A stretch of 64,000 bases of DNA from Eukaryota sp. GEM-RC1 (Eukaryota): NCBI GenBank assembly GCA_040285855.1, contig JAUFOQ010000013.1, positions 558,001 through 622,000 of the forward strand, given 5' to 3'. Shown in pieces: positions 15,766 to 49,820 of the stretch. A program made the position numbers and the translations under genes. The notes under the pieces are model-generated. The model was not told the origin of the DNA, did no database searches, and saw only the letters and a list, made by a program, of their open reading frames with translations. Every line of letters starts with the position of its first letter. Position 1 is the stretch's first letter.

Positions 15766-15802
15766 ATGACAAATGTGATTTTTATATACAATGAAAACTT
15801 GT

Positions 15803-27659: not shown

Positions 27660-28015
27660 TTCATCTCAACACTTGTAATAATGAAACTGTATGTTGGTAA
27701 TTCGATGGTAAATGTATACTATAAATTAACAATATTTCAGATACTAATAAATCTCTGTTGTTGTTGAGAACAATAGCAAGAGCACCAGTAAATAACGTGT
27801 GTTATTCACGAGGGTATTTAAAATCTGTACTTGAACATCTGCTAAACTACTATGATATTTGACTCTGTCACGGAGTTTTGTTTGGGATAATGTTTGTTCT
27901 GAGCAAAATGATTTTTCAAGTGTGTATTATATTCACCCATTAGTTATGGGACTTTTGATGAGAAATTAAATATGATTAATAACAAATATGATTTTAATGT
28001 ACAATGGAAACTTGT

Positions 28016-28696: not shown

Positions 28697-29069
28697 ATAT
28701 TTCTCACCATTTCATCTCAACAATTTTAATAATGAAACTGTACATTGGGAATTCGATGGTAAATGTATAGTAGAAATTAACAATTCTTCAGATACTAATA
28801 AAGTTCTGTTGTTGTTGTGAACAATAACAAAAGTACCAGTAAATAACGTGTGTTATTCATTAGGGCAGTATTTAAAATCTGTACTTGAACATCTGCTAAA
28901 CTACTATGATATTTGACTCTGTCACGGAGTTTTGTTTGGGATAATGTTTGTTCTGAGCAAAATGATTTTTCAAGTGTGTATTATATTCACCGATTAATTA
29001 TGGGACTTTTGATGAGAAATTAAATATGATTAATAACAAATATGATTTTAATGTACAATGAAAACTTGT

Positions 29070-29750
29070 TTAAAAAGACATTCTATTTTTGTTTAGTAAT
29101 TTTAATGACTGTTGTGTTTGACTGTTGATTGAGTTGTTTCCTAGATAAATCGTAGAAACTGAAGAATTCACCTTCAAAGCTTCAGCAATTGCAATAGCTC
29201 CTTCATTACCAATTGAGTTTTCAGCTAGATAAATCTCAGAAACTGAAGAATTCACCTTCAAAGCTTCAGCAATCGCAATAGCTCCTTCATTACCAATTGA
29301 GTTGTTTCCTAGATAAATCTCAGAAACTGAAGAATTCACCTTCAAAGCTTCAGCAATTGCAATAGCTCCTTCATTACCAATTGAGTTGTTCCATAGATAA
29401 ATCTCAGAAACTGAAGAATTCACCTTCAAAGATTCAGCAATTGCAATTGCTCCTTCAGGACCAATTGAGTTGTTATATAGATTGATCGTAGAAACTGAAG
29501 AATTCACCTTCAAAGCTTCAGCAATTGCAATAGCTCCTTCAGGACCAATTGAGTTGTTTTGTAGATAAATCGCAGAAACTGAAGAATTCACCTTCAAAGC
29601 TTCAGCAATTGCAATAGCTCCTTCACTACCAATTGAATTGTGCCTTAGATAAATCGTAGAAACTGCAGAATTCACCTTCAAAGCTTCAGCAATTGCAATA
29701 GCTCCTTCAGGACCAATTGAGTTGTAATCTAGATTGATCGTAGAAACCTC
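29070..29750 (-). pseudogene. LRR cassette 25, ATG-less, 8 LRR
   Basis: Open LRR frame. AT insertion. Confidence 0.75.
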
Positions 29751-30123
29751 ATATTTCTCACCATTTCATCTCAACAATTTTAATAATGAAACTGTACATT
29801 GGGAATTCGATGGTAAATGTATAGTAGAAATTAACAATTCTTCAGATACTAATAAAGTTCTGTTGTTGTTGTGAACAATAACAAAAGTACCAGTAAATAA
29901 CGTGTGTTATTCATTAGGGCAGTATTTAAAATCTGTACTTGAACATCTGCTAAACTACTATGATATTTGACTCTGTCACGGAGTTTTGTTTGGGATAATG
30001 TTTGTTCTGAGCAAAATGATTTTTCAAGTGTGTATTATATTCACCGATTAATTATGGGACTTTTGATGAGAAATTAAATATGATTAATAACAAATATGAT
30101 TTTAATGTACAATGAAAACTTGT

Positions 30124-30888
30124 TTAAAAAGACATTCTATTTTTGTTTAGTAATTTTAATGACTGTTGTGTTTGACTGTTGATTGAGTTGTTATCTAGAA
30201 AAATCGTAGAAACTGAAGAATTCACCTTCAAAGCTTCAGCAATCGCAATAGCTCCTTCATTACCAATTGAGTTTTCAGCTAGATAAATCTCAGAAACTGA
30301 AGAATTCATCTTCAAAGCTTCAGCAATCGCAATAGCTCCTTCATTACCAATTGAGTTGTTTCCTAGATAAATCTCAGAAACTGAAGAATTCACCTTCAAA
30401 GCTTCAGCAATTGCAATAGCTCCTTCATTACCAATTGAGTTGTTCCATAGATAAATCTCAGAAACTGAAGAATTCACCTTCAAAGATTCAGCAATTGCAA
30501 TTGCTCCTTCAGGACCAATTGAGTTGTTATATAGATTGATCGTAGAAACTGAAGAATTCACCTTCAAAGCTTCAGCAATTGCAATAGCTCCTTCAGGACC
30601 AATTGAGTTGTTATATAGATTGATCGTAGAAACTGAAGAATTCACCTTCAAAGCTTCAGCAATTGCAATAGCTCCTTCAGGACCAATTGAGTTGTTTTGT
30701 AGATAAATCGCAGAAACTGAAGAATTCACCTTCAAAGCTTCAGCAATTGCAATAGCTCCTTCACTACCAATTGAATTGTGCCTTAGATAAATCGTAGAAA
30801 CTGCAGAATTCACCTTCAAAGCTTCAGCAATTGCAATAGCTCCTTCAGGACCAATTGAGTTGTAATCTAGATTGATCGTAGAAACCTC
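30124..30888 (-). pseudogene. LRR cassette 26, no 5' ATG, 9 LRR
   Basis: Open LRR frame. AT insertion. Confidence 0.75.
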
Positions 30889-31262
30889 ATATTTCTCACC
30901 ATTTCATCCTCAACAATTTTAATAATGAAACTGTACATTGGGAATTCGATGGTAAATGTATAGTAGAAATTAACAATTCTTCAGATACTAATAAAGTTCT
31001 GTTGTTGTTGTGAACAATAACAAAAGTACCAGTAAATAACGTGTGTTATTCATTAGGGCAGTATTTAAAATCTGTACTTGAACATCTGCTAAACTACTAT
31101 GATATTTGACTCTGTCACGGAGTTTTGTTTGGGATAATGTTTGTTCTGAGCAAAATGATTTTTCAAGTGTGTATTATATTCACCGATTAATTATGGGACT
31201 TTTGATGAGAAATTAAATATGATTAATAACAAATATGATTTTAATGTACAATGAAAACTTGT

Positions 31263-31859
31263 TTAAAAAGACATTCTATTTTTGTTTAGTAATTTTAATG
31301 ACTGTTGTGTTTGACTGTTGATTGAGTTGTTTCCTAGATAAATCTCAGAAACTGAAGAATTCACCTTCAAAGCTTCAGCAATTGCAATAGCTCCTTCATT
31401 ACCAATTGAGTTGTTTCCTAGATAAATCGTAGAAACTGAAGAATTCACCTTCAAAGCTTCAGCAATTGCAATAGCTCCTTCATTACCAATTGAGTTGTTT
31501 CCTAGATAAATCGTAGAAACTGAAGAATTCACCTTCAAAGCTTCAGCAATTGCAATAGCTCCTTCAGGACCAATTGAGTTGTTATATAGATTGATCGTAG
31601 AAACTGAAGAATTCACCTTCAAAGCTTCAGCAATTGCAATAGCTCCTTCAGGACCAATTGAGTTGTTTTGTAGATAAATCGCAGAAACTGAAGAATTCAC
31701 CTTCAAAGCTTCAGCAATTGCAATAGCTCCTTCACTACCAATTGAATTGTGCCTTAGATAAATCGTAGAAACTGCAGAATTCACCTTCAAAGCTTCAGCA
31801 ATTGCAATAGCTCCTTCAGGACCAATTGAGTTGTAATCTAGATTGATCGTAGAAACCTC
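31263..31859 (-). pseudogene. LRR cassette 27, ATG-less, 7 LRR
   Basis: Open LRR frame. AT insertion. Confidence 0.75.
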
Positions 31860-32232
31860 ATATTTCTCACCATTTCATCTCAACAATTTTAATAATGAAA
31901 CTGTACATTGGGAATTCGATGGTAAATGTATAGTAGAAATTAACAATTCTTCAGATACTAATAAAGTTCTGTTGTTGTTGTGAACAATAACAAAAGTACC
32001 AGTAAATAACGTGTGTTATTCATTAGGGCAGTATTTAAAATCTGTACTTGAACATCTGCTAAACTACTATGATATTTGACTCTGTCACGGAGTTTTGTTT
32101 GGGATAATGTTTGTTCTGAGCAAAATGATTTTTCAAGTGTGTATTATATTCACCGATTAATTATGGGACTTTTGATGAGAAATTAAATATGATTAATAAC
32201 AAATATGATTTTAATGTACAATGAAAACTTGT

Positions 32233-32830
32233 TTAAAAAAGACATTCTATTTTTGTTTAGTAATTTTAATGACTGTTGTGTTTGACTGTTGATTGAGTTG
32301 TTTCCTAGATAAATCTCAGAAACTGAAGAATTCACCTTCAAAGCTTCAGCAATTGCAATAGCTCCTTCATTACCAATTGAGTTGTTTCCTAGATAAATCG
32401 TAGAAACTGAAGAATTCACCTTCAAAGCTTCAGCAATTGCAATAGCTCCTTCATTACCAATTGAGTTGTTTCCTAGATAAATCGTAGAAACTGAAGAATT
32501 CACCTTCAAAGCTTCAGCAATTGCAATAGCTCCTTCAGGACCAATTGAGTTGTTTCCTAGATAAATCGTAGAAACTGAAGAATTCACCTTCAAAGCTTCA
32601 GCAATTGCAATAGCTCCTTCAGGACCAATTGAGTTGTTTTGTAGATAAATCGCAGAAACTGAAGAATTCACCTTCAAAGCTTCAGCAATTGCAATAGCTC
32701 CTTCACTACCAATTGAATTGTGCCTTAGATAAATCGTAGAAACTGCAGAATTCACCTTCAAAGCTTCAGCAATTGCAATAGCTCCTTCAGGACCAATTGA
32801 GTTGTAATCTAGATTGATCGTAGAAACCTC
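32233..32830 (-). pseudogene. LRR cassette 28, ATG-less, 7 LRR
   Basis: Open LRR frame. AT insertion. Extra A at the stop. Confidence 0.75.
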
Positions 32831-33203
32831 ATATTTCTCACCATTTCATCTCAACAATTTTAATAATGAAACTGTACATTGGGAATTCGATGGTAAATGT
32901 ATAGTAGAAATTAACAATTCTTCAGATACTAATAAAGTTCTGTTGTTGTTGTGAACAATAACAAAAGTACCAGTAAATAACGTGTGTTATTCATTAGGGC
33001 AGTATTTAAAATCTGTACTTGAACATCTGCTAAACTACTATGATATTTGACTCTGTCACGGAGTTTTGTTTGGGATAATGTTTGTTCTGAGCAAAATGAT
33101 TTTTCAAGTGTGTATTATATTCACCGATTAATTATGGGACTTTTGATGAGAAATTAAATATGATTAATAACAAATATGATTTTAATGTACAATGAAAACT
33201 TGT

Positions 33204-33884
33204 TTAAAAAGACATTCTATTTTTGTTTAGTAATTTTAATGACTGTTGTGTTTGACTGTTGATTGAGTTGTTATCTAGATAAATCGTAGTAACTGAAGAA
33301 TTCACCTTCAAAGCTTCAGCAATTGCAATAGCTCCTTCATTACCAATTGAGTTGTGCCTTAGATCGATCGTAGAAACTAAAGAATTCACCTTCAAAGCTT
33401 CAGCAATTGCAATAGCTCCTTCAGGACCAATTGAGTTGTTTCCTAGATGGATCGTAGAAACTGAAGAATTCACCTTCAAAGCTTCAGCAATTGCAATAGC
33501 TCTTTCACTACCAATTGAATTGTGCCTTAGATAAATCGTAGAAACTGCAGAATTCACCTTCAAAGCTTCAGCAATTGCAATAGCTCCTTCAGGACCAATT
33601 GAGTTGTGCCTTAGATCGATGTAAGAAACTGAAGAATTCACCTTCAAAGCTTCAGCAATTGCAATAGCTCCTTCAGGACCAATTGAGTTGTTTCCTAGAT
33701 GGATCGTAGAAACTGAAGAATTCACCTTCAAAGCTTCAGCAATTGCAATAGCTCCTTCACTACCAATTGAATTGTGCCTTAGATAAATCGTAGAAACTGC
33801 AGAATTCACCTTCAAAGCTTCAGCAATTGCAATAGCTCCTTCAGGACCAATTGAGTTGTAATCTAGATTGATCGTAGAAACCTC
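33204..33884 (-). pseudogene. LRR cassette 29, ATG-less, 8 LRR
   Basis: Open LRR frame. AT insertion. Confidence 0.75.
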
Positions 33885-34254
33885 ATATTTCTCACCATTT
33901 CATCTCAACAATTTTAATAATGAAACTGTATGTTGGTAATTCGATGGTAAATGTATACTATAAATTAACAATATTTCAGATACTAATAAATCTCTGTTGT
34001 TGTTGAGAACAATAGCAAGAGCACCAGTAAATAACGTGTGTTATTCACGAGGGTACTTAAAATGTGTACCTGAACATCTGCTAAACTACTATGATATTTG
34101 ACTCTGTAGCGGAGTTTTGTTTGGGATAATGTTTGTTCTGAGCAAAATGATTTTTCAAGTATGCATTACATTCATCGTTTAATTATGGTGCTTTTGATGA
34201 GAAATTAATTATGATTAATGACAAATGTGATTTTTATAAACAATGAAAACTTGT

Positions 34255-35103
34255 TTAAAAAGACATTCTATTTTTGTGTAGTGATTTTAACGACTGTTGT
34301 GTTTGACTGTTGATTGAGTTGTTATCTAGATAAATCGTAGAAACTGAAGAATTCACCTTCAAAGCTTCAGCAATTGCAATAGCTCCTTCATTACCAATTG
34401 AGTTTTCAGCTAGATGGATCGTAGAAACTGAAGAATTCACCTTCAAAGCTTCAGCAATTGCAATAGCTCCTTCATTACCAATTGAGTTTTCAGCTAGATA
34501 AATCTCAGAAACTGAAGAATTCACCTTCAAAGCTTCAGCAATTGCAATAGCTCCTTCATTACCAATTGAGTTGTGCCTTAGATCGATCGTAGAAACTAAA
34601 GAATTCACCTTCAAAGCTTCAGCAATTGCAATAGCTCCTTCAGGACCAATTGAGTTGTTTCCTAGATGGATCGTAGAAACTGAAGAATTCACCTTCAAAG
34701 CTTCAGCAATTGCAATAGCTCTTTCACTACCAATTGAATTGTGCCTTAGATAAATCGTAGAAACTGCAGAATTCACCTTCAAAGATTCAGCAATTGCAAT
34801 AGCTCCTTCAGGACCAATTGAGTTGTGCCTTAGATCGATGTAAGAAACTGAAGAATTCACCTTCAAAGCTTCAGCAATTGCAATAGCTCCTTCAGGACCA
34901 ATTGAGTTGTTTCCTAGATGGATCGTAGAAACTGAAGAATTCACCTTCAAAGCTTCAGCAATTGCAATAGCTCCTTCACTACCAATTGAATTGTGCCTTA
35001 GATAAATCGTAGAAACTGCAGAATTCACCTTCAAAGCTTCAGCAATTGCAATAGCTCCTTCAGGACCAATTGAGTTGTAATCTAGATTGATCGTAGAAAC
35101 CTC
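34255..35103 (-). pseudogene. LRR cassette 30, ATG-less, 10 LRR
   Basis: Open LRR frame. AT insertion. Confidence 0.75.
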
Positions 35104-35473
35104 ATATTTCTCACCATTTCATCTCAACAATTTTAATAATGAAACTGTATGTTGGTAATTCGATGCTAAATGTATACTATAAATTAACAATATTTCAGAT
35201 ACTAATAAATCTCTGTTGTTGTTGAGAACAATAGCAAGAGCACCAGTAAATAACGTGTGTTATTCACGAGGGTACTTAAAATGTGTACCTGAACATCTGC
35301 TAAACTACTATGATATTTGACTCTGTAGCGGAGTTTTGTTTGGGATAATGTTTGTTCTGAGCAAAATGATTTTTCAAGTGTGCATTACATTCATCGTTTA
35401 ATTATGGTGCTTTTGATGAGAAATTAATTATGATTAATGACAAATGTGATTTTTATAAACAATGAAAACTTGT

Positions 35474-36961
35474 TTAAAAAGACATTCTATTTTTGTGTAG
35501 TGATTTTAACGACTGTTGTGTTTGACTGTTGATTGAGTTGTTATCTAGATAAATCGTAGAAACTGAAGAATTCACCTTCAAAGCTTCAGCAATTGCAATA
35601 GCTCCTTCATTACCAATTGAGTTTTCAGCTAGATGGATCGTAGAAACTGAAGAATTCACCTTCAAAGCTTCAGCAATTGCAATAGCTCCTTCATTACCAA
35701 TTGAGTTTTCAGCTAGATAAATCTCAGAAACTGAAGAATTCACCTTCAAAGCTTCAGCAATTGCAATAGCTCCTTCATTACCAATTGAGTTGTTTCCTAG
35801 ATAAATCGTAGAAACTGAAGAATTCACCTTCAAAGCTTCAGCAATTGCAATAGCTCCTTCATTACCAATTGAGTTGTTTCCTAGATAAATCGCAGAAACT
35901 GAAGAATTCACCTTCAAAGCTTCAGCAATTGCAATAGCTCCTTCATTACCAATTGAGTTGTTCCATAGATAAATCGCAGAAACTGAAGAATTCACCTTCA
36001 AAGCTTCAGCAATTGCAATAGCTCCTTCATTACCAATTGAGTTGTTTCCTAGATAAATCGTAGAAACTGAAGAATTCACCTTCAAAGCTTCAGCAATTGC
36101 AATAGCTCCTTCATTACCAATTGAGTTGTTTTGTAGATAAATCGCAGAAACTGAAGAATTCACCTTCAAAGCTTCAGCAATTGCAATAGCTCCTTCAGGA
36201 CCAATTGAGTTGTTATATAGATTGATCGTAGAAACTGAAGAATTCACCTTCAAAGCTTCAGCAATTGCAATAGCTCCTTCAGGACCAATTGAGTTGTTTT
36301 GTAGATAAATCGCAGAAACTGAAGAATTCACCTTCAAAGCTTCAGCAATTGCAATAGCTCCTTCACTACCAATTGAGTTGTTCCATAGATAAATCTCAGA
36401 AACTGAAGAATTCACCTTCAAAGCTTCAGCAATTGCAATAGCTCCTTCAGGACCAATTGAGTTGTTATATAGATTGATCGTAGAAACTGAAGAATTCACC
36501 TTCAAAGCTTCAGCAATTGCAATAGCTCCTTCATTACCAATTGAGTTGTTATCTAGATAAATCGTAGAAACCTCATTTCTCACCATTACATCATAACAAT
36601 TCTTCAACTTCGAACTAAGCTCGTTCCAATCAATAACAAGCTCCTTCTCTTCAACTTGTTGTACAGGGCACACACTTTCAATAGACTTGATTGGTGAAGG
36701 AGTGTCATCTAGAAGCCTAGCAGAAGCAACATTGGACTCCGAAACAACAGAAAGAGAGACCAAACGACGAGAAGCTTCGGAGTGAATAGAGCAAAGTTCT
36801 TCATTTAAAGAGGAGATGATAGCAGATTGGTTCTTAAGTAGGGTGGAGGTTGTGGTAATGAAGTTTTCGCCGATCTTTGGTTTAAAGATTACACCTTTCT
36901 TTCTTTTCAATCTCACCTGTTTCTGTACCTTATCAATAACGTGTTTTGTTTTTAAGATATT
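35474..36961 (-). CDS. LRR cassette 31, long type (linker + 13 LRR), frame open from the TTTTTTCTCTAG acceptor-like site
   Basis: The 480-aa track ORF starts at GTG. The frame extends 15 more codons (NILKTKHVIDKVQKQ) to the TAG at 36962-36964. Confidence 0.8.
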   Translation of the reverse strand, partial: NILKTKHVIDKVQKQVRLKRKKGVIFKPKIGENFITTTSTLLKNQSAIISSLNEELCSIHSEASRRLVSLSVVSESNVASARLLDDTPSPIKSIESVCPVQQVEEKELVIDWNELSSKLKNCYDVMVRNEVSTIYLDNNSIGNEGAIAIAEALKVNSSVSTINLYNNSIGPEGAIAIAEALKVNSSVSEIYLWNNSIGSEGAIAIAEALKVNSSVSAIYLQNNSIGPEGAIAIAEALKVNSSVSTINLYNNSIGPEGAIAIAEALKVNSSVSAIYLQNNSIGNEGAIAIAEALKVNSSVSTIYLGNNSIGNEGAIAIAEALKVNSSVSAIYLWNNSIGNEGAIAIAEALKVNSSVSAIYLGNNSIGNEGAIAIAEALKVNSSVSTIYLGNNSIGNEGAIAIAEALKVNSSVSEIYLAENSIGNEGAIAIAEALKVNSSVSTIHLAENSIGNEGAIAIAEALKVNSSVSTIYLDNNSINSQTQQSLKSLHKNRMSF

Positions 36962-37628
36962 CTAGAGAAAAAATATCCAATACTGGGTCGATTAGTTAAT
37001 TTTACATAATTTACTAAATTTCAGATGTACAAAAAGCGGTTTTGTGTGTTGACACAGAGACAAAAACTTTTTTTGACAACACCACTACAGTGTACATACA
37101 TCTAATAATCAATATCCTCAAAGTCCAGATTGCCTATCCGGAAATTCTCCCCTACTTTGGATAGCCGAAATTGTAATTAACATGTCTATAAACTCTTTCT
37201 TCAGATATTAATTGTGCAATTCCTAAAACAATTCTGAACATTAGATTTAAAAAAGCACAATCGCAATTTCAATAACATGTACTTGCCTATGTAGAAACCG
37301 CAGAAATTAATTTAACATAACTAGGTCTCCGTAAATTTAACATCGTCATATGTGTTTCTGCTTTTGACTCCAATATTCAACACAACAAAAGTACCAGTAA
37401 ATAACGTGTGTTATTCACCAGGGTAGGACTTAAAATCTACACCTGAACACCTGCTAAACTACTATGATATTTGACCCTGTCACGGAGTTTTGTTTGGGAT
37501 AATGGTTGTTCTGAGCTAAATGATTTTTCAAGTGTGTATTATATTCACCGATTAATTATTGTACTTTTGATGGGAAATTAATTATGATCAATGACAAATG
37601 TGATTTTTTTTATACAACGAAAACTTGT

Positions 37629-38237
37629 TTAAAAATACATTCTATTTTTGTGTAGTGATTTTAACGACTGTTGTGTTTGACTGTTGATTGAGTTGTTATA
37701 TAGATAAATCGTAGAAACTGAAGAATTCACCTTCAAAGCTTCAGCAATTGCAATAGCTCCTTCATTACCAATTGAGTTGTTATCTAGATGGATCGTAGAA
37801 ACTGAAGAATTCACCTTCAAAGCTTCAGCAATCGCAATAGCTCCTTCAGGACCAATTGAGTTGAAACCTAGACCAATCGTAGAAACTGCAGAATTCACCT
37901 TCAAAGCTTCAGCAATTGCAATAGCTCCTTCAGGACCAATTGAGTTGTGCCTTAGATCGATGTAAGAAACTGAAGAATTCACCTTCAAAGCTTCAGCAAT
38001 TGCAATAGCGCCTTCAGGACCAATTGAGTTGTAACCTAGATAAATCTCAGAAACTGAAGAATTCACCTTCAAAGCTTCAGCAATTGCAATAGCTCCTTCA
38101 GGACCAATTGAGTTGTTAAATAGATAAATCTTAGAAACTGAAGAATTCACCTTCAAAGATTCAGCAATTGCAATAGCTCCTTCAGGACCAATTGAGTTGT
38201 TATATAGATTGATCGTAGAAACCTCATTTCTCACCAT
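37629..38237 (-). CDS. LRR cassette 32, short type, 7 LRR
   Basis: ORF MVRNEV...KNRMYF. Confidence 0.7.
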   Translation of the reverse strand: MVRNEVSTINLYNNSIGPEGAIAIAESLKVNSSVSKIYLFNNSIGPEGAIAIAEALKVNSSVSEIYLGYNSIGPEGAIAIAEALKVNSSVSYIDLRHNSIGPEGAIAIAEALKVNSAVSTIGLGFNSIGPEGAIAIAEALKVNSSVSTIHLDNNSIGNEGAIAIAEALKVNSSVSTIYLYNNSINSQTQQSLKSLHKNRMYF

Positions 38238-38593
38238 TTCATCTCAACACTTGTAATAATGAAACTGTATGTTGGTAATTCGATGGTAAATGTATACTAT
38301 AAATTAACAATATTTCAGATACTAATAAATCTCTGTTGTTGTTGAGAACAATAGCAAGAGCACCAGTAAATAACGTGTGTTATTCACGAGGGTACTTAAA
38401 ATGTGTACCTGAACATCTGCTAAACTACTATGATATTTGACTCTGTAGCGGAGTTTTGTTTGGGATAATGTTTGTTCTGAGCAAAATGATTTTTCAAGTG
38501 TGCATTACATTCATCGTTTAATTATGGTGCTTTTGATGAGAAATTAATTATGATTAATGACAAATGTGATTTTTATAAACAATGAAAACTTGT

Positions 38594-38951
38594 TTAAAAA
38601 AGACATTCTATTTTTGTGTAGTGATTTTAACGACTGTTGTGTTTGACTGTTGATTGAGTTGTTATCTAGAGAAATCGTAGAAACTGAACAATTCACCTTC
38701 AACGCTTCAGCAATTGCAATAGCTCCTTCATTACCAATTGAGTTGGTCCATAGATTGATCGTAGAAACTGAAGAATTCACCTTCAAAGCTTCAGCAATTG
38801 CAATTGCTCCTTCAGGACCAATTGAGTTGTTATATAGATTGATCGTAGAAACTGAAGAATTCACCTTCAAAGATTCAGCAATTGCAATAGCTGCTTCAGG
38901 ACCAATTGAGTTGTTATATAGATTGATCGTAGAAACCTCATTTCTCACCAT
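38594..38951 (-). CDS. LRR cassette 33, short type, 4 LRR
   Basis: ORF MVRNEV. An extra A at the usual stop extends the track ORF to 38544. Confidence 0.7.
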
Positions 38952-39307
38952 TTCATCTCAACACTTGTAATAATGAAACTGTATGTTGGTAATTCGATGG
39001 TAAATGTATACTATAAATTAACAATATTTCAGATACTAATAAATCTCTGTTGTTGTTGAGAACAATAGCAAGAGCACCAGTAAATAACGTGTGTTATTCA
39101 CGAGGGTACTTAAAATGTGTACCTGAACATCTGCTAAACTACTATGATATTTGACTCTGTAGCGGAGTTTTGTTTGGGATAATGTTTGTTCTGAGCAAAA
39201 TGATTTTTCAAGTGTGCATTACATTCATCGTTTAATTATGGTGCTTTTGATGAGAAATTAATTATGATTAATGACAAATGTGATTTTTATAAACAATGAA
39301 AACTTGT

Positions 39308-40090
39308 TTAAAAAAGACATTCTATTTTTGTGTAGTGATTTTAACGACTGTTGTGTTTGACTGTTGATTGAGTTGTTATCTAGAGAAATCGTAGAAACTG
39401 AACAATTCACCTTCAAAGCTTCAGCAATTGCAATAGCTCCTTCAGGACCAATTGAGTTGTAATCTAGAGAAATCGTAGAAACTGAACAATTCACCTTCAA
39501 CGCTTCAGCAATTGCAATAGCTCCTTCAGGACCAATTGAGTTGTAATCTAGATAAATCTTAGAAACTGAAGAATTCACCTTCAAAGCTTCAGCAATTGCA
39601 ATAGCTCCTTCACTACCAATTGAATTGTGCCTTAGATAAATCGTAGAAACTGCAGAATTCACCTTCAACGCTTCAGCAATTGCAATAGCATAGCTCCTTC
39701 AGGACCAATTGAGTTGTTAAATAGATAAATCTTAGAAACTGAAGAATTCATCTTCAAAGCTTCAGCAATTGCAATAGCTCCTTCAGGACCAATTGAATTG
39801 TGCCTTAGATAAATCGTAGAAACTGCAGAATTCACCTTCAAAGCTTCAGCAATTGCAATAGCTCCTTCATTACCAATTGAGTTGGTCCATAGATTGATCG
39901 TAGAAACTGAAGAATTCACCTTCAAAGCTTCAGCAATTGCAATTGCTCCTTCAGGACCAATTGAGTTGTTATATAGATTGATCGTAGAAACTGAAGAATT
40001 CACCTTCAAAGATTCAGCAATTGCAATAGCTCCTTCAGGACCAATTGAGTTGTTATATAGATTGAACGTAGAAACCTCATTTCTCACCAT
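39308..40090 (-). pseudogene. LRR cassette 34, short type, 9 LRR, frameshifted by a 5-nt duplication at ~39690
   Basis: tgcaatagcatagctcc splits ORFs 39665-40090 and 39258-39668. Confidence 0.7.
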
Positions 40091-40446
40091 TTCATCTCAA
40101 CACTTGTAATAATGAAACTGTATGTTGGTAATTCGATGGTAAATGTATACTATAAATTAACAATATTTCAGATACTAATAAATCTCTGTTGTTGTTGAGA
40201 ACAATAGCAAGAGCACCAGTAAATAACGTGTGTTATTCACGAGGGTACTTAAAATGTGTACCTGAACATCTGCTAAACTACTATGATATTTGACTCTGTA
40301 GCGGAGTTTTGTTTGGGATAATGTTTGTTCTGAGCAAAATGATTTTTCAAGTGTGCATTACATTCATCGTTTAATTATGGTGCTTTTGATGAGAAATTAA
40401 TTATGATTAATGACAAATGTGATTTTTATAAACAATGAAAACTTGT

Positions 40447-40804
40447 TTAAAAAAGACATTCTATTTTTGTGTAGTGATTTTAACGACTGTTGTGTTTGAC
40501 TGTTGATTGAGTTGTTATCTAGAGAAATCGTAGAAACTGAAGAATTCACCTTCAACGCTTCAGCAATTGCAATAGCTCCTTCATTACCAATTGAGTTGGT
40601 CCATAGATTGATCGTAGAAACTGAAGAATTCACCTTCAAAGCTTCAGCAATTGCAATTGCTCCTTCAGGACCAATTGAGTTGTTATATAGATTGATCGTA
40701 GAAACTGAAGAATTCACCTTCAAAGATTCAGCAATTGCAATAGCTGCTTCAGGACCAATTGAGTTGTTATATAGATTGATCGTAGAAACCTCATTTCTCA
40801 CCAT
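40447..40804 (-). CDS. LRR cassette 35, short type, 4 LRR
   Basis: ORF MVRNEV. Extra A at the usual stop. Confidence 0.7.
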
Positions 40805-40989
40805 TTCATCTCAACACTTGTAATAATGAAACTGTATGTTGGTAATTCGATGGTAAATGTATACTATAAATTAACAATATTTCAGATACTAATGAATCTC
40901 TGTTGTTGTTGAGAACAATAGCAAGAGCACCAGTAAATAACGTGTGTTATTCACGAGGGTACTTAAAATGTGTACCTGAACATCTGCTA

Positions 40990-41267
40990 ATCGTAGAAAC
41001 TGAAGAATTCACCTTCAAAGCTTCAGCAATTGCAATAGCTCCTTCAGTACCAATTGAGTTGTTACCTAGATCGACTGTAGAAACTGAAGAATTCACCTTC
41101 AAAGATTCAGCAATTGCAATTGCTCCTTCAGGACCAATTGAGTTGTTATATAGATTGATCGTAGAAACTGAAGAATTCACCTTCAAAGATTCAGCAATTG
41201 CAATAGCTCCTTCAGGACCAATTGAGTTGTTATATAGATTGATCGTAGAAACCTCATTTCTCACCAT
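40990..41267 (-). pseudogene. LRR cassette 36, 3'-truncated by a deletion fusing it into the spacer
   Basis: Junction catctgctaa|tcgtagaaac at 40990. C-terminal cap is missing. Confidence 0.8.
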
Positions 41268-41623
41268 TTCATCTCAACAATTGTAATAATGAAACTGTAT
41301 GTTGGTAATTCGATGGTAAATGTATACTATAAATTAACAATATTTCAGATACTAATAAATCTCTGTTGTTGTTGAGAACAATAGCAAGAGCACCAGTAAA
41401 TAACGTGTGTTATTCACGAGGGTACTTAAAATGTGTACCTGAACATCTGCTAAACTACTATGATATTTGACTCTGTAGCGGAGTTTTGTTTGGGATAATG
41501 TTTGTTCTGAGCAAAATGATTTTTCAAGTGTGCATTACATTCATCGTTTAATTATGGTGCTTTTGATGAGAAATTAATTATGATTAATGACAAATGTGAT
41601 TTTTATAAACAATGAAAACTTGT

Positions 41624-42904
41624 TTAAAAAGACATTCTATTTTTGTGTAGTGATTTTAACGACTGTTGTGTTTGATTGCTGATTGAGTTGTTATCTAGAT
41701 AAATCGTAGAAACTGAAGAATTCACCTTCAACGCTTCAGCAATTGCAATAGCTCCTTCATTACCAATTGAGTTGTTATCTAGATAAATCGTAGAAACTGA
41801 AGAATTCACCTTCAAAGCTTCAGCAATTGCAATAGCTCCTTCATTACCAATTAAGTTGTACCATAGATTGATCTTAGAAACTGAAGAATTCACCTTCAAA
41901 GCTTCAGCAATTGCAATAGCTCCTTCATTACCAATTGAGTTGTACCATAGATAAATCTCAGAAACTGAAGAATTCACCTTCAGAGCTTCAGCAATTGCAA
42001 TAGCTCCTTCATTACCAATTGAGTTGTACCATAGATAAATCTCAGAAACTGAAGAATTCACCTTCAGAGCTTCAGCAATTGCAATAGCTCCTTCATTACC
42101 AATTGAGTTGTCACCTAGATAAATCGTAGAAACTGAAGAATTCACCTTCAAAGCTTCAGCAATTGCAATAGCTCCTTCATTACCAATTGAGTTGTCACCT
42201 AGATAAATCGTAGAAACTGAAGAATTCACCTTCAAAGCTTCAGCAATTGCAATAGCTCCTTCGACAGCAATTGAGTTGTTCCATAGATAAATCGTAGAAA
42301 CTGAAGAATTCACCTTGAAAGCTTCAGCAATTGCAATAGCTCCTTCGACACCAATTGAGTTGTTATATAGATTGATCGTAGAAACTGAAGAATTCACCTT
42401 CAAAGCTTCAGCAATTGCAATAGCGCCTTCAGGACCAATTGAGTTGTTAAATAGATAAATCGTAGAAACTGAAAAATTCACCTTCAAAGCTTCAGCAATT
42501 GCAATAGCTCCTTCGACAGCAATTGAGTTGTTCCATAGATAAATCGTAGAAACTGAAGAATTCACCTTCAAAGCTTCAGCAATTGCAATAGCTCCTTCGA
42601 CACCAATTGAGTTGTTATATAGATTGATCGTAGAAACTGAAGAATTCACCTTCAAAGCTTCAGCAATTGCAATAGCGCCTTCAGGACCAATTGAGTTGTT
42701 AAATAGATAAATCGTAGAAACTGAAGAATTCACCTTCAAAGCTTCAGCAATTGCAATAGCTCCTTCAGTACCAATTGAGTTGTTACCTAGATCGACTGTA
42801 GAAACTGAAGAATTCACCTTCAAAGATTCAGCAATTGCAATTGCTCCTTCAGGACCAATTGAGTTGTTATATAGATTGATCGTAGAAACCTCATTTCTCA
42901 CCAT
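41624..42904 (-). CDS. LRR cassette 37, short type, 15 LRR
   Basis: 426-aa ORF MVRNEV...KNRMSF. Confidence 0.75.
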   Translation of the reverse strand: MVRNEVSTINLYNNSIGPEGAIAIAESLKVNSSVSTVDLGNNSIGTEGAIAIAEALKVNSSVSTIYLFNNSIGPEGAIAIAEALKVNSSVSTINLYNNSIGVEGAIAIAEALKVNSSVSTIYLWNNSIAVEGAIAIAEALKVNFSVSTIYLFNNSIGPEGAIAIAEALKVNSSVSTINLYNNSIGVEGAIAIAEAFKVNSSVSTIYLWNNSIAVEGAIAIAEALKVNSSVSTIYLGDNSIGNEGAIAIAEALKVNSSVSTIYLGDNSIGNEGAIAIAEALKVNSSVSEIYLWYNSIGNEGAIAIAEALKVNSSVSEIYLWYNSIGNEGAIAIAEALKVNSSVSKINLWYNLIGNEGAIAIAEALKVNSSVSTIYLDNNSIGNEGAIAIAEALKVNSSVSTIYLDNNSISNQTQQSLKSLHKNRMSF

Positions 42905-43260
42905 TTCATCTCAACAATTGTAATAATGAAACTGTATGTTGGTAATTCGATGGTAAATGTATACTATAAATTAACAATATTTCAGATACTAATAAATCTC
43001 TCTTGTTGTTGAGAACAATAGCAAGAGCACCAGTAAATAACGTGTGTTATTCACGAGGGTACTTAAAATGTGTACCTGAACATCTGCTAAACTACTATGA
43101 TATTTGACTCTGTAGCGGAGTTTTGTTTGGGATAATGTTTGTTCTGAGCAAAATGATTTTTCAAGTGTGCATTACATTCATCGTTTAATTATGGTGCTTT
43201 TGATGAGAAATTAATTATGATTAATGACAAATGTGATTTTTATAAACAATGAAAACTTGT

Positions 43261-43698
43261 TCAAAAAGACATTCTATTTTTGTGTAGTGATTTTAACGAC
43301 TGTTGTGTTTGACTGTTGATTGAGTTGTTATCTAGATAAATCGTAGTAACTGAAGAATTCACCTTCAACGCTTCAGCAATTGCAATAGCTCCTTCATTAC
43401 CAATTGAGTTGTTATCTAGATAAATCGTAGTAACTGAAGAATTCACCTTCAAAGCTTCAGCAATTGCAATAGCTCCTTCACTACCAATTGAGTTGTTACC
43501 TAGAGAAATCGTAGAAACTGAAGGATTCACCTTCAACGCTTCAGCAATTGCAATAGCTCCTTCATTACCAATTAAGTTGTTATATAGATTGATCTTAGAA
43601 ACTGAAGAATTCACCTTCAAAGCTTCAGCAATTGCAATAGCTCCTTCATTACCAATTGAGTTGTTATCTAGATAAATCGTAGAAACTGAAGAATTCAC
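43261..43698 (-). pseudogene. LRR cassette 38, ATG-less (GAA AGG GTG AAT), 5 LRR
   Basis: Open frame from GTG with a TGA stop. Same 5' end as cassette 8. Confidence 0.7.
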
Positions 43699-44060
43699 CC
43701 TTTCATCTCAACAATTTTAATAATGAAACTGTACATTGGTAATTCGATGGTAAGTGTACAGTATAAATTAACAATATTTCAGATACTAATAAATTTCTGT
43801 TGTTGTTGAGAACAATAGGAAAAGTAGCAGTAAATAATGTGTGTTAGTCACCAGGGTATTACTTAAAATCTGTACTTGAACATCTGCTAAACTACTATGA
43901 TATTTGACTCTGTCACGGAGTTTTGTTTGGGATAATGGTTGTTCTGAGCTAAATGATTTTTCAAGTGTGCATTACATTCACAGTTTAATTATGGTGCTTT
44001 TGATGAGAAATTAATTATGATTAATGGAAAATGTGATTTTTATATGTAATGAAAACTTGT

Positions 44061-44501
44061 TTAAAAAGAGATTCTATTTTTGTGTAGTGATTTTAACGAC
44101 TGCTGTGTTTGACTGTTGATTGAGTTGTCACCTAGATAAATCGTAGAAACTGAAGAATTCACCTTCAAAGATTCAGCAATTGCAATAGCTCCTTCAGGAC
44201 TAATTGAGTTGTTATATAGATTGATCGTAGAAACTGAAGAATTCACCTTCAAAGATTCAGCAATTGCAATAGCTCCTTCAGGACCAACTGAGTTGTTATC
44301 TAGATAAATCGTAGTAACTGAAGAATTCACCTTCAAAGCTTCAGCAATTGCAATAGCTCCTTCAGTACCAATTGAGTTGTTACCTAGATCGACTGTAGAA
44401 ACTGAAGAATTCACCTTCAAAGATTCAGCAATTGCAATTGCTCCTTCAGGACCAATTGAGTTGTTATATAGATTGATCGTAGAAACCTCATTTCTCACCA
44501 T
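44061..44501 (-). CDS. LRR cassette 39, short type, 5 LRR
   Basis: ORF MVRNEV...KNRISF. Confidence 0.7.
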   Translation of the reverse strand: MVRNEVSTINLYNNSIGPEGAIAIAESLKVNSSVSTVDLGNNSIGTEGAIAIAEALKVNSSVTTIYLDNNSVGPEGAIAIAESLKVNSSVSTINLYNNSISPEGAIAIAESLKVNSSVSTIYLGDNSINSQTQQSLKSLHKNRISF

Positions 44502-44857
44502 TTCATCTCAACAATTGTAATAATGAAACTGTATGTTGGTAATTCGATGGTAAATGTATACTATAAATTAACAATATTTCAGATACTAATAAATCTCTGT
44601 TGTTGTTGAGAACAATAGCAAGAGCACCAGTAAATAACGTGTGTTATTCACGAGGGTACTTAAAATGTGTACCTGAACATCTGCTAAACTACTATGATAT
44701 TTGACTCTGTAGCGGAGTTTTGTTTGGGATAATGTTTGTTCTGAGCAAAATGATTTTTCAAGTGTGCATTACATTCATCGTTTAATTATGGTGCTTTTGA
44801 TGAGAAATTAATTATGATTAATGACAAATGTGATTTTTATAAACAATGAAAACTTGT

Positions 44858-45298
44858 TTAAAAAGACATTCTATTTTTGTGTAGTGATTTTAACGACTGT
44901 TGTGTTTGACTGTTGATTGAGTTGTTATCTAGATAAATCGTAGTAACTGAAGAATTCACCTTCAACGCTTCAGCAATTGCAATAGCTCCTTCATTACCAA
45001 TTAAGTTGTTATATAGATTGATCGTAGAAACTGAAGAATTCACCTTCAAAGCTTCAGCAATTGCAATAGCTCCTTCATTACCAATTAAGTTGTTATATAG
45101 ATTGATCGTAGAAACTGAAGAATTCACCTTCAAAGATTCAGCAATTGCAATAGCTCCTTCAGGACCAATTGAGTTGTTACCTAGATCGACTGTAGAAACT
45201 GAAGAATTCACCTTCAAAGATTCAGCAATTGCAATTGCTCCTTCAGGACCAATTGAGTTGTTATATAGATTGATCGTAGAAACCTCATTTCTCACCAT
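44858..45298 (-). CDS. LRR cassette 40, short type, 5 LRR
   Basis: ORF MVRNEV...KNRMSF. Confidence 0.7.
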   Translation of the reverse strand: MVRNEVSTINLYNNSIGPEGAIAIAESLKVNSSVSTVDLGNNSIGPEGAIAIAESLKVNSSVSTINLYNNLIGNEGAIAIAEALKVNSSVSTINLYNNLIGNEGAIAIAEALKVNSSVTTIYLDNNSINSQTQQSLKSLHKNRMSF

Positions 45299-45654
45299 TT
45301 CATCTCAACAATTGTAATAATGAAACTGTATGTTGGTAATTCGATGGTAAATGTATACTATAAATTAACAATATTTCAGATACTAATAAATCTCTGTTGT
45401 TGTTGAGAACAATAGCAAGAGCACCAGTAAATAACGTGTGTTATTCACGAGGGTACTTAAAATGTGTACCTGAACATCTGCTAAACTACTATGATATTTG
45501 ACTCTGTAGCGGAGTTTTGTTTGGGATAATGTTTGTTCTGAGCAAAATGATTTTTCAAGTGTGCATTACATTCATCGTTTAATTATGGTGCTTTTGATGA
45601 GAAATTAATTATGATTAATGACAAATGTGATTTTTATAAACAATGAAAACTTGT

Positions 45655-46263
45655 TTAAAAAGACATTCTATTTTTGTGTAGTGATTTTAACGACTGTTGT
45701 GTTTGACTGTTGATTGAGTTGTTATCTAGATAAATCGTAGTAACTGAAGAATTCACCTTCAACGCTTCAGCAATTGCAATAGCTCCTTCATTACCAATTA
45801 AGTTGTTATATAGATTGATCGTAGAAACTGAAGAATTCACCTTCAAAGCTTCAGCAATCGCAATAGCTCCTTCAGGACCAATTGAGTTGAAACCTAGACC
45901 AATCGTAGAAACTGCAGAATTCACCTTCAAAGCTTCAGCAATTTCAATAGCTCCTTCAGGACCAATTGAGTTGTGCCTTAGATCGATGTAAGAAACTGAA
46001 GAATTCACCTTCAAAGCTTCAGCAATTGCAATAGCGCCTTCAGGACCAATTGAGTTGTAACCTAGATAAATCTCAGAAACTGAAGAATTCACCTTCAAAG
46101 CTTCAGCAATTGCAATAGCTCCTTCAGGACCAATTGAGTTGTTAAATAGATAAATCTTAGAAACTGAAGAATTCACCTTCAAAGATTCAGCAATTGCAAT
46201 TGCTCCTTCAGGACCAATTGAGTTGTTATATAGATTGATCGTAGAAACCTCATTTCTCACCAT
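45655..46263 (-). CDS. LRR cassette 41, short type, 7 LRR
   Basis: ORF differs from cassette 43 by one residue. Confidence 0.7.
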   Translation of the reverse strand: MVRNEVSTINLYNNSIGPEGAIAIAESLKVNSSVSKIYLFNNSIGPEGAIAIAEALKVNSSVSEIYLGYNSIGPEGAIAIAEALKVNSSVSYIDLRHNSIGPEGAIEIAEALKVNSAVSTIGLGFNSIGPEGAIAIAEALKVNSSVSTINLYNNLIGNEGAIAIAEALKVNSSVTTIYLDNNSINSQTQQSLKSLHKNRMSF

Positions 46264-46619
46264 TTCATCTCAACAATTGTAATAATGAAACTGTATGTTG
46301 GTAATTCGATGGTAAATGTATACTATAAATTAACAATATTTCAGATACTAATAAATCTCTGTTGTTGTTGAGAACAATAGCAAGAGCACCAGTAAATAAC
46401 GTGTGTTATTCACGAGGGTACTTAAAATGTGTACCTGAACATCTGCTAAACTACTATGATATTTGACTCTGTAGCGGAGTTTTGTTTGGGATAATGTTTG
46501 TTCTGAGCAAAATGATTTTTCAAGTGTGCATTACATTCATCGTTTAATTATGGTGCTTTTGATGAGAAATTAATTATGATTAATGACAAATGTGATTTTT
46601 ATAAACAATGAAAACTTGT

Positions 46620-46976
46620 TTAAAAAGACATTCTATTTTTGTGTAGTGATTTTAACGACTGTTGTGTTTGACTGTTGATTGAGTTGTTATCTAGATAAAT
46701 CGTAGTAACTGAAGAATTCACCTTCAACGCTTCAGCAATTGCAATAGCTCCTTCATTACCAATTAAGTTGTTATCTAGATAAATCGTAGTAACTGAAGAA
46801 TTCACCTTCAACGCTTCAGCAATTGCAATAGCTCCTTCATTACCAATTAAGTTGTTATATAGATTGATCGTAGAAACTGAAGAATTCACCTTCAAAGATT
46901 CAGCAATTGCAATTGCTCCTTCAGGACCAATTGAGTTGTTATATAGATTGATCGTAGAAACCTCATTTCTCACCAT
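46620..46976 (-). CDS. LRR cassette 42, short type, 4 LRR
   Basis: ORF MVRNEV...KNRMSF. Confidence 0.7.
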   Translation of the reverse strand: MVRNEVSTINLYNNSIGPEGAIAIAESLKVNSSVSTINLYNNLIGNEGAIAIAEALKVNSSVTTIYLDNNLIGNEGAIAIAEALKVNSSVTTIYLDNNSINSQTQQSLKSLHKNRMSF

Positions 46977-47332
46977 TTCATCTCAACAATTGTAATAATG
47001 AAACTGTATGTTGGTAATTCGATGGTAAATGTATACTATAAATTAACAATATTTCAGATACTAATAAATCTCTGTTGTTGTTGAGAACAATAGCAAGAGC
47101 ACCAGTAAATAACGTGTGTTATTCACGAGGGTACTTAAAATGTGTACCTGAACATCTGCTAAACTACTATGATATTTGACTCTGTAGCGGAGTTTTGTTT
47201 GGGATAATGTTTGTTCTGAGCAAAATGATTTTTCAAGTGTGCATTACATTCATCGTTTAATTATGGTGCTTTTGATGAGAAATTAATTATGATTAATGAC
47301 AAATGTGATTTTTATAAACAATGAAAACTTGT

Positions 47333-47941
47333 TTAAAAAGACATTCTATTTTTGTGTAGTGATTTTAACGACTGTTGTGTTTGACTGTTGATTGAGTTGT
47401 TATCTAGATAAATCGTAGTAACTGAAGAATTCACCTTCAACGCTTCAGCAATTGCAATAGCTCCTTCATTACCAATTAAGTTGTTATATAGATTGATCGT
47501 AGAAACTGAAGAATTCACCTTCAAAGCTTCAGCAATCGCAATAGCTCCTTCAGGACCAATTGAGTTGAAACCTAGACCAATCGTAGAAACTGCAGAATTC
47601 ACCTTCAAAGCTTCAGCAATTGCAATAGCTCCTTCAGGACCAATTGAGTTGTGCCTTAGATCGATGTAAGAAACTGAAGAATTCACCTTCAAAGCTTCAG
47701 CAATTGCAATAGCGCCTTCAGGACCAATTGAGTTGTAACCTAGATAAATCTCAGAAACTGAAGAATTCACCTTCAAAGCTTCAGCAATTGCAATAGCTCC
47801 TTCAGGACCAATTGAGTTGTTAAATAGATAAATCTTAGAAACTGAAGAATTCACCTTCAAAGATTCAGCAATTGCAATTGCTCCTTCAGGACCAATTGAG
47901 TTGTTATATAGATTGATCGTAGAAACCTCATTTCTCACCAT
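47333..47941 (-). CDS. LRR cassette 43, short type, 7 LRR
   Basis: ORF MVRNEV...KNRMSF. Confidence 0.7.
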   Translation of the reverse strand: MVRNEVSTINLYNNSIGPEGAIAIAESLKVNSSVSKIYLFNNSIGPEGAIAIAEALKVNSSVSEIYLGYNSIGPEGAIAIAEALKVNSSVSYIDLRHNSIGPEGAIAIAEALKVNSAVSTIGLGFNSIGPEGAIAIAEALKVNSSVSTINLYNNLIGNEGAIAIAEALKVNSSVTTIYLDNNSINSQTQQSLKSLHKNRMSF

Positions 47942-48297
47942 TTCATCTCAACAATTGTAATAATGAAACTGTATGTTGGTAATTCGATGGTAAATGTATA
48001 CTATAAATTAACAATATTTCAGATACTAATAAATCTCTGTTGTTGTTGAGAACAATAGCAAGAGCACCAGTAAATAACGTGTGTTATTCACGAGGGTACT
48101 TAAAATGTGTACCTGAACATCTGCTAAACTACTATGATATTTGACTCTGTAGCGGAGTTTTGTTTGGGATAATGTTTGTTCTGAGCAAAATGATTTTTCA
48201 AGTGTGCATTACATTCATCGTTTAATTATGGTGCTTTTGATGAGAAATTAATTATGATTAATGACAAATGTGATTTTTATAAACAATGAAAACTTGT

Positions 48298-49079
48298 TTA
48301 AAAAGACATTCTATTTTTGTGTAGTGATTTTAACGACTGTTGTGTTTGACTGTTGATTGAGTTGTTATCTAGATAAATCGTAGTAACTGAAGAATTCACC
48401 TTCAACGCTTCAGCAATTGCAATAGCTCCTTCATTACCAATTAAGTTGTTATCTAGATAAATCGTAGTAACTGAAGAATTCACCTTCAACGCTTCAGCAA
48501 TTGCAATAGCTCCTTCATTACCAATTAAGTTGTTATATAGATTGATCGTAGAAACTGAAGAATTCACCTTCAAAGATTCAGCAATTGCAATAGCTCCTTC
48601 AGGACCAATTGAGTTGTTATCTAGATAAATCGTAGTAACTGAAGAATTCACCTTCAGAGCTTCAGCAATTGCAATAGCTCCTTCATTACCAATTGAGTTG
48701 TCACCTAGATCGATCTCAGAAACCTCATTTCTCACCATTTCATCATAACAATTCTTCAACTTCGAACTAAGCTTGCTCCAATCAATAACAAGCTCCTTCT
48801 CTTCAACTTGTTGTACAAGGCACACACTTTCAATAGACTTGATTGGCGAAGGAGTGTCATCTAGAAGCCTAGCAGAAGCAACATTGGACTCCGAAACAAC
48901 GGAAAGAGAGGCCAAACGACGAGAAGCTTCGGAGTGAATAGAGCAAAGTTCTTCATTTAAAGAGGAGATGATAGCGGATTGGTTGTTAAGTAGGGTGGAA
49001 GTTGTGGTAATGAAGTTTCCTCTTTCAATCTCACCTGTTTCTGTACCTTATCAATAACGTGTTTTGTTTTTAAGATATT
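48298..49079 (-). CDS. LRR cassette 44, long type (linker + 5 LRR), abutting the RBCC ORF; probable 3' half of an RBCC-LRR gene
   Basis: Track ORF 48298-48915. The frame is open further upstream (GEIERGNFITTTSTLLNNQSAIISSLNEELCSIH) to ~49047. Confidence 0.75.
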
Positions 49080-49109
49080 CTAGAGAAAAAATATCCAATA
49101 CTGGGTCGA

Positions 49110-49820
49110 TTAGTTAATTAAAAATGATTTAAAGTCATTCATGATGGTAACAGAGTCTAACATAGTTTCTTGCAGCATATCAGTTAGAGTTTCTTTCATT
49201 TGAGCAAATCCAGATGCCGCTTGTTGGAGAGCATTTTCAGTACACTTTCTGACGGTTTCTACAGCAATGGCTAGTTCTTGATTGATGGCATTAATGCCAT
49301 GTTCTACAGCAGATCTTCCTTCGTCAAACGGAAGCAAATTCTTCTTGTGCTGGTCGTGGTCCCCAAGGATAGCACAAATTGAGCAAAGCGCAACAGAACA
49401 AGAAGTACAGAAGAGGTCAAAGGATTTGGACGGATGGATCGGACATTTAGGCACAATGGAGGCGTGTTTCTTTTGCAGCGGAATTGCAACGTGGGTACGT
49501 AAGAGTTTCGGCCGATGAATGTCCTTAAAACATTGGTCGCATAAATCAGCGTCACATTCTGCGCAATAACAAGTGGCAACAGCTTCATCACACTCAATAC
49601 AAATAGACTCACCCTGACCAGCAACGAAGGCTTCAACAGCTTCTTTCAACTTGTAGTTAGGACACAGCCTTGACTTGTCCACTTCAGCTCTACAAATTGG
49701 ACATCCGTCATGAGAAACAAGCCACTCCTGTAAATCCGACATACAAAAGGTGTGGCCACACCAAGTAGTTACCGGATTCTTGAGAATTTCATGACATATA
49801 TCACATAGATAGTGAGACAT
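49110..49820 (-). CDS. TRIM-like RING finger / B-box1 / B-box2 / coiled-coil protein (putative E3 ubiquitin ligase N-terminal half)
   Basis: RING-like CDIC..CGHTFC..D..CPICR, B-box1-like CIEC..CYCAECDADLCDQC..IH..H, B-box2-like CPIH..FCTSCSVALCSIC..HDQH, then a helical heptad-like region. Confidence 0.92.
   Translation of the reverse strand: MSHYLCDICHEILKNPVTTWCGHTFCMSDLQEWLVSHDGCPICRAEVDKSRLCPNYKLKEAVEAFVAGQGESICIECDEAVATCYCAECDADLCDQCFKDIHRPKLLRTHVAIPLQKKHASIVPKCPIHPSKSFDLFCTSCSVALCSICAILGDHDQHKKNLLPFDEGRSAVEHGINAINQELAIAVETVRKCTENALQQAASGFAQMKETLTDMLQETMLDSVTIMNDFKSFLIN

Follow-up and report, generated by a model that had tools for sequence, protein, structure and literature searches.

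Borrelia with its vlsE/vls locus, trypanosomes with VSG and lampreys with VLR all possess silent-cassette gene-conversion systems. The closest protist parallel to the array considered here is the expansion of leucine-rich repeat (LRR) genes in Tetrahymena, going by the available sections of that study (PMC6564038). For the module that stands at the head of the array the reference is the TRIM/RBCC family, whose tripartite motif is called metazoan-only and in which 170-220 aa separate B-box2 from the C-terminal domain, according to the accessible part of one survey (PMC2533329), while a single Dictyostelium TRIM, DdTRIM, is on record in the text at hand of PMC5758549. Given DdTRIM, together with the RING/B-box and B-box/LRR clusters that the Atlas offered as leads (best 0.90), a TRIM in a protist is by itself no novelty. 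What the locus points to is an architecture that we have not found described, i.e., a TRIM-type module with hypervariable RI-type LRRs in a protist, and for neither the family nor the array did we find a published description, although supplements could mention them.

An RBCC head and its array of LRR cassettes

The window, by which we mean the whole 64,000-nt stretch of DNA analysed, carries on its minus strand a RING/B-box/coiled-coil (RBCC) reading frame, hereafter the head, and a tandem array of LRR cassettes (Table 1). The head encodes a RING at residues 6-43, B-box1 at 74-110 and B-box2 at 126-158, followed by the putative first coiled-coil helix; Pfam returned the RING (zf-C3HC4, above cut-off) and a B-box, a motif search returned the RING, B-box1 and B-box2, and one Cys ligand position of the RING is occupied by Asp. 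The exact stop-ending protein of 236 aa is a called gene in the protein collection. We counted 45 cassette starts where the first-pass annotation had 44, namely 40 short and 5 long ones (c44 next to the head and the distal c31, c3, c2 and c1), the units consisting of 84-nt repeats, which encode 28-aa LRRs of RI/RanGAP type, with spacers of about 350 nt.

Table 1. Coordinates of the head, the junction and the cassettes within the window
Feature	Position	Strand	Remarks
RBCC head, 236 aa (P0005)	49110..49820	-	ORF from ATG 49820 to TAA 49112-49110
Breakpoint zone	49119..49131	-	9/13 nt match the long spacer in register
Foreign stretch, 106 nt	49019..49124	-	replaces 35 native nt coding GKPVIFKPKIG(E) in relatives
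Acceptor-like motif (ACTAAT ... CAG ... pyrimidine tract TAG)	49080..49118	-	inside the spacer-derived stretch
Cassette 44 (putative coiled-coil remainder, linker, RI-like LRRs)	48298..49018	-	linker residue comparison
Tandem array, 40 short headless LRR cassettes with long ones interspersed	1..48297	-	runs off the window
Long spacer, 736 nt	36893..37628	-	3' flank of a KNRMYF-ending cassette into ATTAACTAAT...GAAAGGT
Long cassette 31	35474..37000	-	native VIFKPKIGENF retained; sole long cassette open from the TAG
Long cassette 3	4365..5622	-	2 small deletions past the TAG, out of frame
Long cassette 2	2546..3737	-	1-nt linker insertion, out of frame; possibly assembly error
Long cassette 1	1183..1919	-	401 nt from ATTAACTAAT identical to head

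The hypervariable LRR repeats (1-48300, minus strand) are the most interesting feature of the window. We found 298 repeats, 32 of which were irregular and set aside before the position table was made; the 266 regular ones, tabulated without any position being forced, differ chiefly at positions 3, 5, 7, 8 and 13 and contain no stop codons, and positions 3, 5, 7 and 8 fall in and next to the predicted strand. Across the 109 distinct repeats pN/pS was 0.43/0.13 at positions 3, 5, 7 and 8 and 0.044/0.067 elsewhere, values in which the pairs are not independent and some scaffold positions are fixed by the search pattern. Scaffold variants amounted to 13 of the 55 possible synonymous and 22 of the 143 possible non-synonymous changes (p=0.21), and the repeat scaffold is nearly invariant even at silent sites.

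Many short cassettes are damaged at their start, 21 of the 40 being out of frame with their ATG and a further 3 having none; a 2-nt insertion right after the ATG (NGEKYE type) is common to 21 short cassettes (35118 to 8190) and puts their LRRs out of frame. An extra T before the stop, found at 7 of the 40 cassette ends that could be matched (40397, 39258 and 38544 among them), gives a read-through tail, which is also seen in the fused relative P0006 (see below) and is either a real variant or a homopolymer error. One cassette (41273-40947, minus strand) is deletion-fused into a spacer and the last one (412-298, minus strand) has shortened internal repeats, which speaks for ongoing unequal recombination. 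Headless cassettes recur at other loci of the named relatives, as seen from the gene model P0043, which consists of two headless MVRNEV cassettes and whose locus tag is flanked by those of two fused RBCC-LRR genes, and from a four-member cluster of LRR-only models (P0030, P0127-P0129). An exact look-up of 10 short cassettes and the LRR parts of 2 long ones retrieved none from the protein collection, and the locus was not found in metagenome scans.

Other features accompany the array. A spacer insertion of about 590 nt (~15180-15770, plus strand), with a flanking duplication of roughly 8 bp and a T-run end, holds an ORF (15303-15707, plus strand) that has no Pfam match and which we take to resemble the end of a non-LTR retroelement that carries the restriction-like endonuclease. 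Elsewhere lie decayed sequence, presumably Sel1-repeat gene-like when judged by eye (~53450-54300, minus strand), and a fragmented pol of LTR-retrotransposon type with Pfam matches to RVT_1 and RT_RNaseH (59600-64000, plus strand), which we assume to be Ty3/gypsy. A gene for a Kelch/ephrin-like-repeat membrane protein (54893-58414, minus strand) is divided into 4 ORFs: it carries three one-base breaks, located at runs of A4, A5 and T5, and the first of them occupies the same place in all 4 cluster members (P0131-P0134). One-base breaks at short homopolymer runs are typical of long-read error, and those of the kelch gene may reflect such error occurring systematically, a lesion that was inherited, or recoding; as one-base breaks they are ruled out as introns.

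Spacer DNA in place of coding DNA at the junction

Among 390 candidates, 4 matched as longer relatives of the head, three of them fused RING/B-box/LRR proteins (99, 83 and 75% identity) that their source names Eukaryota sp. GEM-RC1, and the fourth a distant B-box/NHL protein. With P0006, a further fused protein from the same cluster as P0001, the fused set comprises P0001, P0006, P0002 and P0003. We take the label, by name, to be the free-living metamonad Skoliomonas sp. GEMRC, as it appears in the available text of PMC11316075. The first-pass annotation had left it to a comparison with intact RBCC-LRR paralogues whether head and LRRs belong together; fused relatives exist, so the adjacency is not incidental. 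The kelch twin P0132, also from a named relative, is 13 locus tags away from P0006, which places a near-identical neighbourhood with an intact head among the named relatives, and fragments elsewhere in the family (P0135, P0137, P0138 and P0139) are as expected for a birth-and-death family.

Compared with intact P0001/P0006, the head has 3 substitutions in 233 aa and no further lesion in the RBCC. The junction of the fused relatives, which are predicted proteins whose genes may hold introns, reads NDLKSGKPVIFKPKIGENF, without the NILKTK peptide that is found at the break of the head, and in P0001 and P0006 the sequence is DSVTIMNDLKSGKPVIFKPKIGENFITTT. The pattern MND.....KP...FKP is kept in 8 of the 12 family members other than the head and in the diverged form MND...PVFKPK in 2, while one of the remaining 2 extends to GKPV and the other terminates at TGKR. 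The head ORF itself terminates at a TAA inside foreign sequence, downstream of which follow a TAG (49082-49080, minus strand) and, from 49079, NILKTKHVIDKVQKQVRLK (the NILKTK peptide), just as the first-pass annotation had described for the RBCC frame (TAA 49110, TAG 49080, then the peptide). Six-frame blastp of the spacer against 126 stored proteins gave no match to this peptide, nor does it occur in any of the 12 family members, and judged by sequence it is no part of the native protein.

The foreign stretch is made up of a 6-nt lead-in that exactly matches neither parent, 96 nt that match the long spacer's end without a difference, and a 4-nt joint; the matching spacer end precedes c31, c3 and c2, and the long spacer of Table 1 is the type example of the source. 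The replacement adds a net 71 nt and brings a frameshift plus stops. As the GKP codons of the intact junction are absent from both strands of the whole window, the native junction cannot be rebuilt by splicing or local rearrangement. ATTAACTAAT occurs five times (49118, 37000, 5622, 3737 and 1919), and it is there that exact identity with the head starts in all four distal long cassettes, a limit already recognised in the first pass; upstream they have in common non-RBCC sequence that continues the 3' flank of the preceding cassette. BLAST carries the match a further 13 nt upstream of ATTAACTAAT, ungapped but imperfect. The in-register score of the breakpoint zone before ATTAACTAAT is equalled at 5 of 616 spacer positions, and this suggests that the joint may have been guided by microhomology.

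Native VIFKPKIGENF is kept in c31 and c2, and 34 nt are missing there in both the head and c1, which lie 47 kb apart. This gap is included in the 401-nt identity of the two, and the first difference between them is the first hypervariable LRR codon. The linker residues NNQ, CL and WSKL of c44 are those of intact P0006, whose read-through tail is encoded in the 3' flank of c44; probably, c44 belongs to the head as its original 3' half, and the junction between them was overwritten. The same structure would follow from a deletion fusing the head to a c1-like cassette, and the two are indistinguishable here. Homopolymer error as the cause of the junction is ruled out, the lesion being a 106-for-35-nt replacement.

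Coding DNA has been replaced by spacer DNA, the frame has been lost and the head and c1 are identical at the level of an exchange. We consider it likely that the head is a pseudogenised TRIM-like copy whose junction was overwritten via recombination with an array cassette, and of the three explanations first put forward it is the dead gene that gains support, from the 106-nt replacement, the frameshift and the lost native codons. The head is likely either a pseudogene or the maker of a truncated 236-aa protein only. Against this reading stands the low number of RBCC substitutions (only 3), so the break would be recent or the truncated protein still in use. As the relatives read straight through with codons that are missing here, a scar rather than a splice site is most likely, and the cassettes "begin at the interruption" because the breakpoint of the head lies there and not because of a shared splice signal. 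As things stand, the junction amounts to a commonplace lesion within a gene cluster that evolves fast.

A similar picture could also come from a long-read mis-join of an intact head with a long cassette across near-identical duplicated regions, given that near-identical intact heads exist and that the neighbouring kelch gene has its three one-base breaks at A4/A5/T5 runs. However, the 3 amino-acid changes of the head are private, the lead-in is exact to neither parent and the 34-nt gap recurs in c1, 47 kb off, and we hold such an assembly artefact to be very unlikely.

The acceptor-like motif and the rearrangement proposal

The spacer-derived stretch had drawn attention as a possible branch point, pyrimidine tract and TAG acceptor. 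The motif is present in all five long copies, as reported, but its role as an acceptor is not supported, and it is probably incidental. Under a post hoc rule (CTRAY followed by a YAG that stands behind at least 8/10 pyrimidines) shuffling produced such motifs in 0.5% of 2000 trials with the 108-nt stretch and in 5.4% of 1000 trials with the 736-nt spacer, while 28 kb of ordinary DNA (both strands, 50-64 kb) held 7 matches. The motif is uncommon, not rare, and its five copies are one event, duplicated. The nearer CAG is ruled out as an acceptor by stops in all three frames.

Translated from the TAG onward, c31 stays open for 495 aa, as far as the LRR end, c2 meets a stop after 81 aa, c44 and c1 at 40 aa and c3 at 36 aa, so only 1 of the 5 long cassettes is in frame through the LRR end, the other 4 being out of frame via 3 separate frame-breaking indel events. 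The first-pass annotation was right about c31 (open), c2 (broken by the 1-nt insertion) and c44 (out of frame), and had left unstated that c1 and c3 are out of frame as well. Stop read-through is ruled out too, as the frame beyond both stops still terminates, at 40 aa, in c44. Among the 40 short cassettes, 0 had the acceptor-like signal within the 150 nt upstream.

Both donor candidates named earlier, TCT/GTTACC (49151, phase 0) and AT/GTTAGA (49161, phase 2), are present and sit within coding sequence conserved in relatives. When all GT/GC-AG pairs linking 49330-48950 with the long cassettes were enumerated in silico, 245 joins were in frame (45 of them to c44), and the best 6 joins per cassette all begin at or before 49151, deleting the conserved VTIMNDLKSGKP. 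Related metamonads have cis- and trans-spliced introns, those of diplomonads with GTATGT/GTAAGT-type donors and the branch point merged with the 3' site, according to the accessible part of PMC6679479. No donor of this type lies near the break, the consensus being a diplomonad/general one that may not be this lineage's. The motif resembles diplomonad and parabasalid introns, as far as the same source presents them, in an ACTAA-like core followed by YAG; it departs from them in that its branch point-like element stands apart from the TAG and no consistent frame follows.

This evidence bears on the proposal of alternative terminal exons, in which splicing, whether in cis or in trans, would join the RBCC exon to an acceptor carried by every long cassette. 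In its favour, ACTAAT, a pyrimidine tract and TAG occur together, which chance provides in 108 nt at a rate of 0.5%, the join from TCT/GT to the TAG of c31 gives an open frame from the 5' part into the LRRs, and the 245 in silico joins make some spliced product possible. However, the model fits a single long cassette out of 5 and none of the 40 short ones, the best-scoring joins listed all lose VTIMNDLKSGKP, a join at the TAG would insert the foreign peptide, and the donors near the break differ from the diplomonad GTATGT/GTAAGT type (from which this lineage's own may deviate). With the peptide missing in relatives, 4 of the 5 long frames broken and the short cassettes without the signal, alternative terminal exons are not supported, and we regard them as highly improbable.

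Reading the junction as a lesion removes an attractive but unsupported splicing story. The other early suggestion, of an unrearranged, germline-like gene in which programmed DNA rearrangement joins the head to one cassette, would suit a single head followed by 45 headless cassettes, but it finds no support for this head: no local deletion restores the native junction, the GKP codons being absent, the cassette starts have no common signal, and intact heads are present as ordinary gene models. We view it as extremely unlikely.

Proposed formation of the probable scar and comparison with known systems

In our preferred account of an overwritten junction, the ancestral gene would have been a single ORF with a RING, two B-boxes, a coiled coil, a linker and RI-type LRRs. 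Tandem duplication of its 3' part plus 3' flank may have produced the array, with a long unit starting at VIFKPK and a short one at DEMVRNEV; duplicated with its flank, the long unit would leave each long cassette preceded by old 3'-flank DNA. An unprogrammed exchange or break repair between the head and a long cassette, with homology in the linker as one anchor and a short imperfect patch (TAAAT.AT) as the opposite one, would then have brought the spacer end into the head by copying or joining, and cassette 1 would be either the donor or a later copy of the exchange product. The locus documents that the head and a cassette lying 47 kb away have exchanged sequence recently.

The same scar could be the by-product of a diversity system, in which a conversion tract overshot into the donor spacer and broke the head. 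Several observations would fit: variation is concentrated at LRR repeat positions 3, 5, 7, 8 and 13, 24 of the 40 short cassettes are unreadable from their own ATG, the head/c1 identity runs exactly to the first variable codon, the linker of P0001 is a mix of c44-type and c31-type residues, P0001 and the array have exact runs of 54, 55 and 83 aa in common, and a headless MVRNEV tandem is also found in a named relative (P0043). However, unequal crossing-over accounts for the same pattern, P0001 and P0006 carry modules that are not in the visible array (the longest exact runs being 54-83 aa, plus private residues, in P0001 and at most 36 aa in P0006), purifying selection on the scaffold variants is not significant (p=0.21), neither a recombinase nor a dedicated signal was seen, and the head adjoining the array is broken, so that within the window no intact expression site is linked to the cassettes and the intact heads are elsewhere. 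We consider an overshoot unlikely. More broadly, it is plausible but rather improbable that a free-living metamonad keeps silent LRR cassette libraries that are gene-converted into TRIM-like RING/B-box/coiled-coil-LRR ubiquitin ligases, and just as tentatively such a library would be an intracellular vlsE-/VLR-like diversifier of target recognition, with the junction as its overshoot scar. If the array did feed intact heads by gene conversion, this would mean combinatorial intracellular recognition in a unicellular eukaryote.

Returning to the overwritten head and its intact relatives, the likeness to TRIM/RBCC proteins lies in the N-terminal order of RING, B-box1, B-box2 and putative coiled coil and in a B-box gap of 15 aa, which is in the range given in the available text of PMC2533329. 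The distance from B-box2 to the LRRs, 185 aa in P0001/P0006, is within the 170-220 aa of that source (the head in the window is cut at 78), while the gap between RING and B-box1 is 30 aa here versus 35-55, and an RI/RanGAP-type 28-aa LRR is not on the list of C-terminal domains in the part of the paper at hand (PMC2533329). Further differences are the protist host, the Asp at one RING ligand and the broken state of the window copy. Sequence matches were obtained to TRIM3 (8amr, E 2.5e-9, residues 125-232) and TIF1-beta (6h3a, E 3e-10). Single-sequence AlphaFold of P0001 placed helices at 165-222 and 242-281, with pLDDT <50 and residues 1-341 unreliable, and the junction would, at low confidence, form a turn between two long helices. 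We infer that the intact gene product may work as an E3 ligase of the TRIM kind in which the LRRs form the substrate arm.

With birth-and-death LRR gene clusters such as those of plant NLRs, and with the 90-bp-exon LRR genes of Tetrahymena as the available sections of PMC6564038 portray them, the array has in common young tandem LRR expansions with partial and broken copies, module shuffling by unequal crossing-over and a putative non-LTR retroelement fragment within the array. It differs in its 84-nt repeats, which have no introns between them, and in that duplication took in the 3' part of the gene along with its flank, so that headless cassettes lie behind a single head. To vlsE, VSG and VLR the locus is alike in having one head beside many headless cassettes, a fixed scaffold with hypervariable positions and exchange between head and cassette. 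Unlike in those systems, the adjacent head is broken, any conversion that runs in one direction and is still active is hypothetical here, and the product would be an intracellular E3 ligase instead of a surface antigen or receptor.
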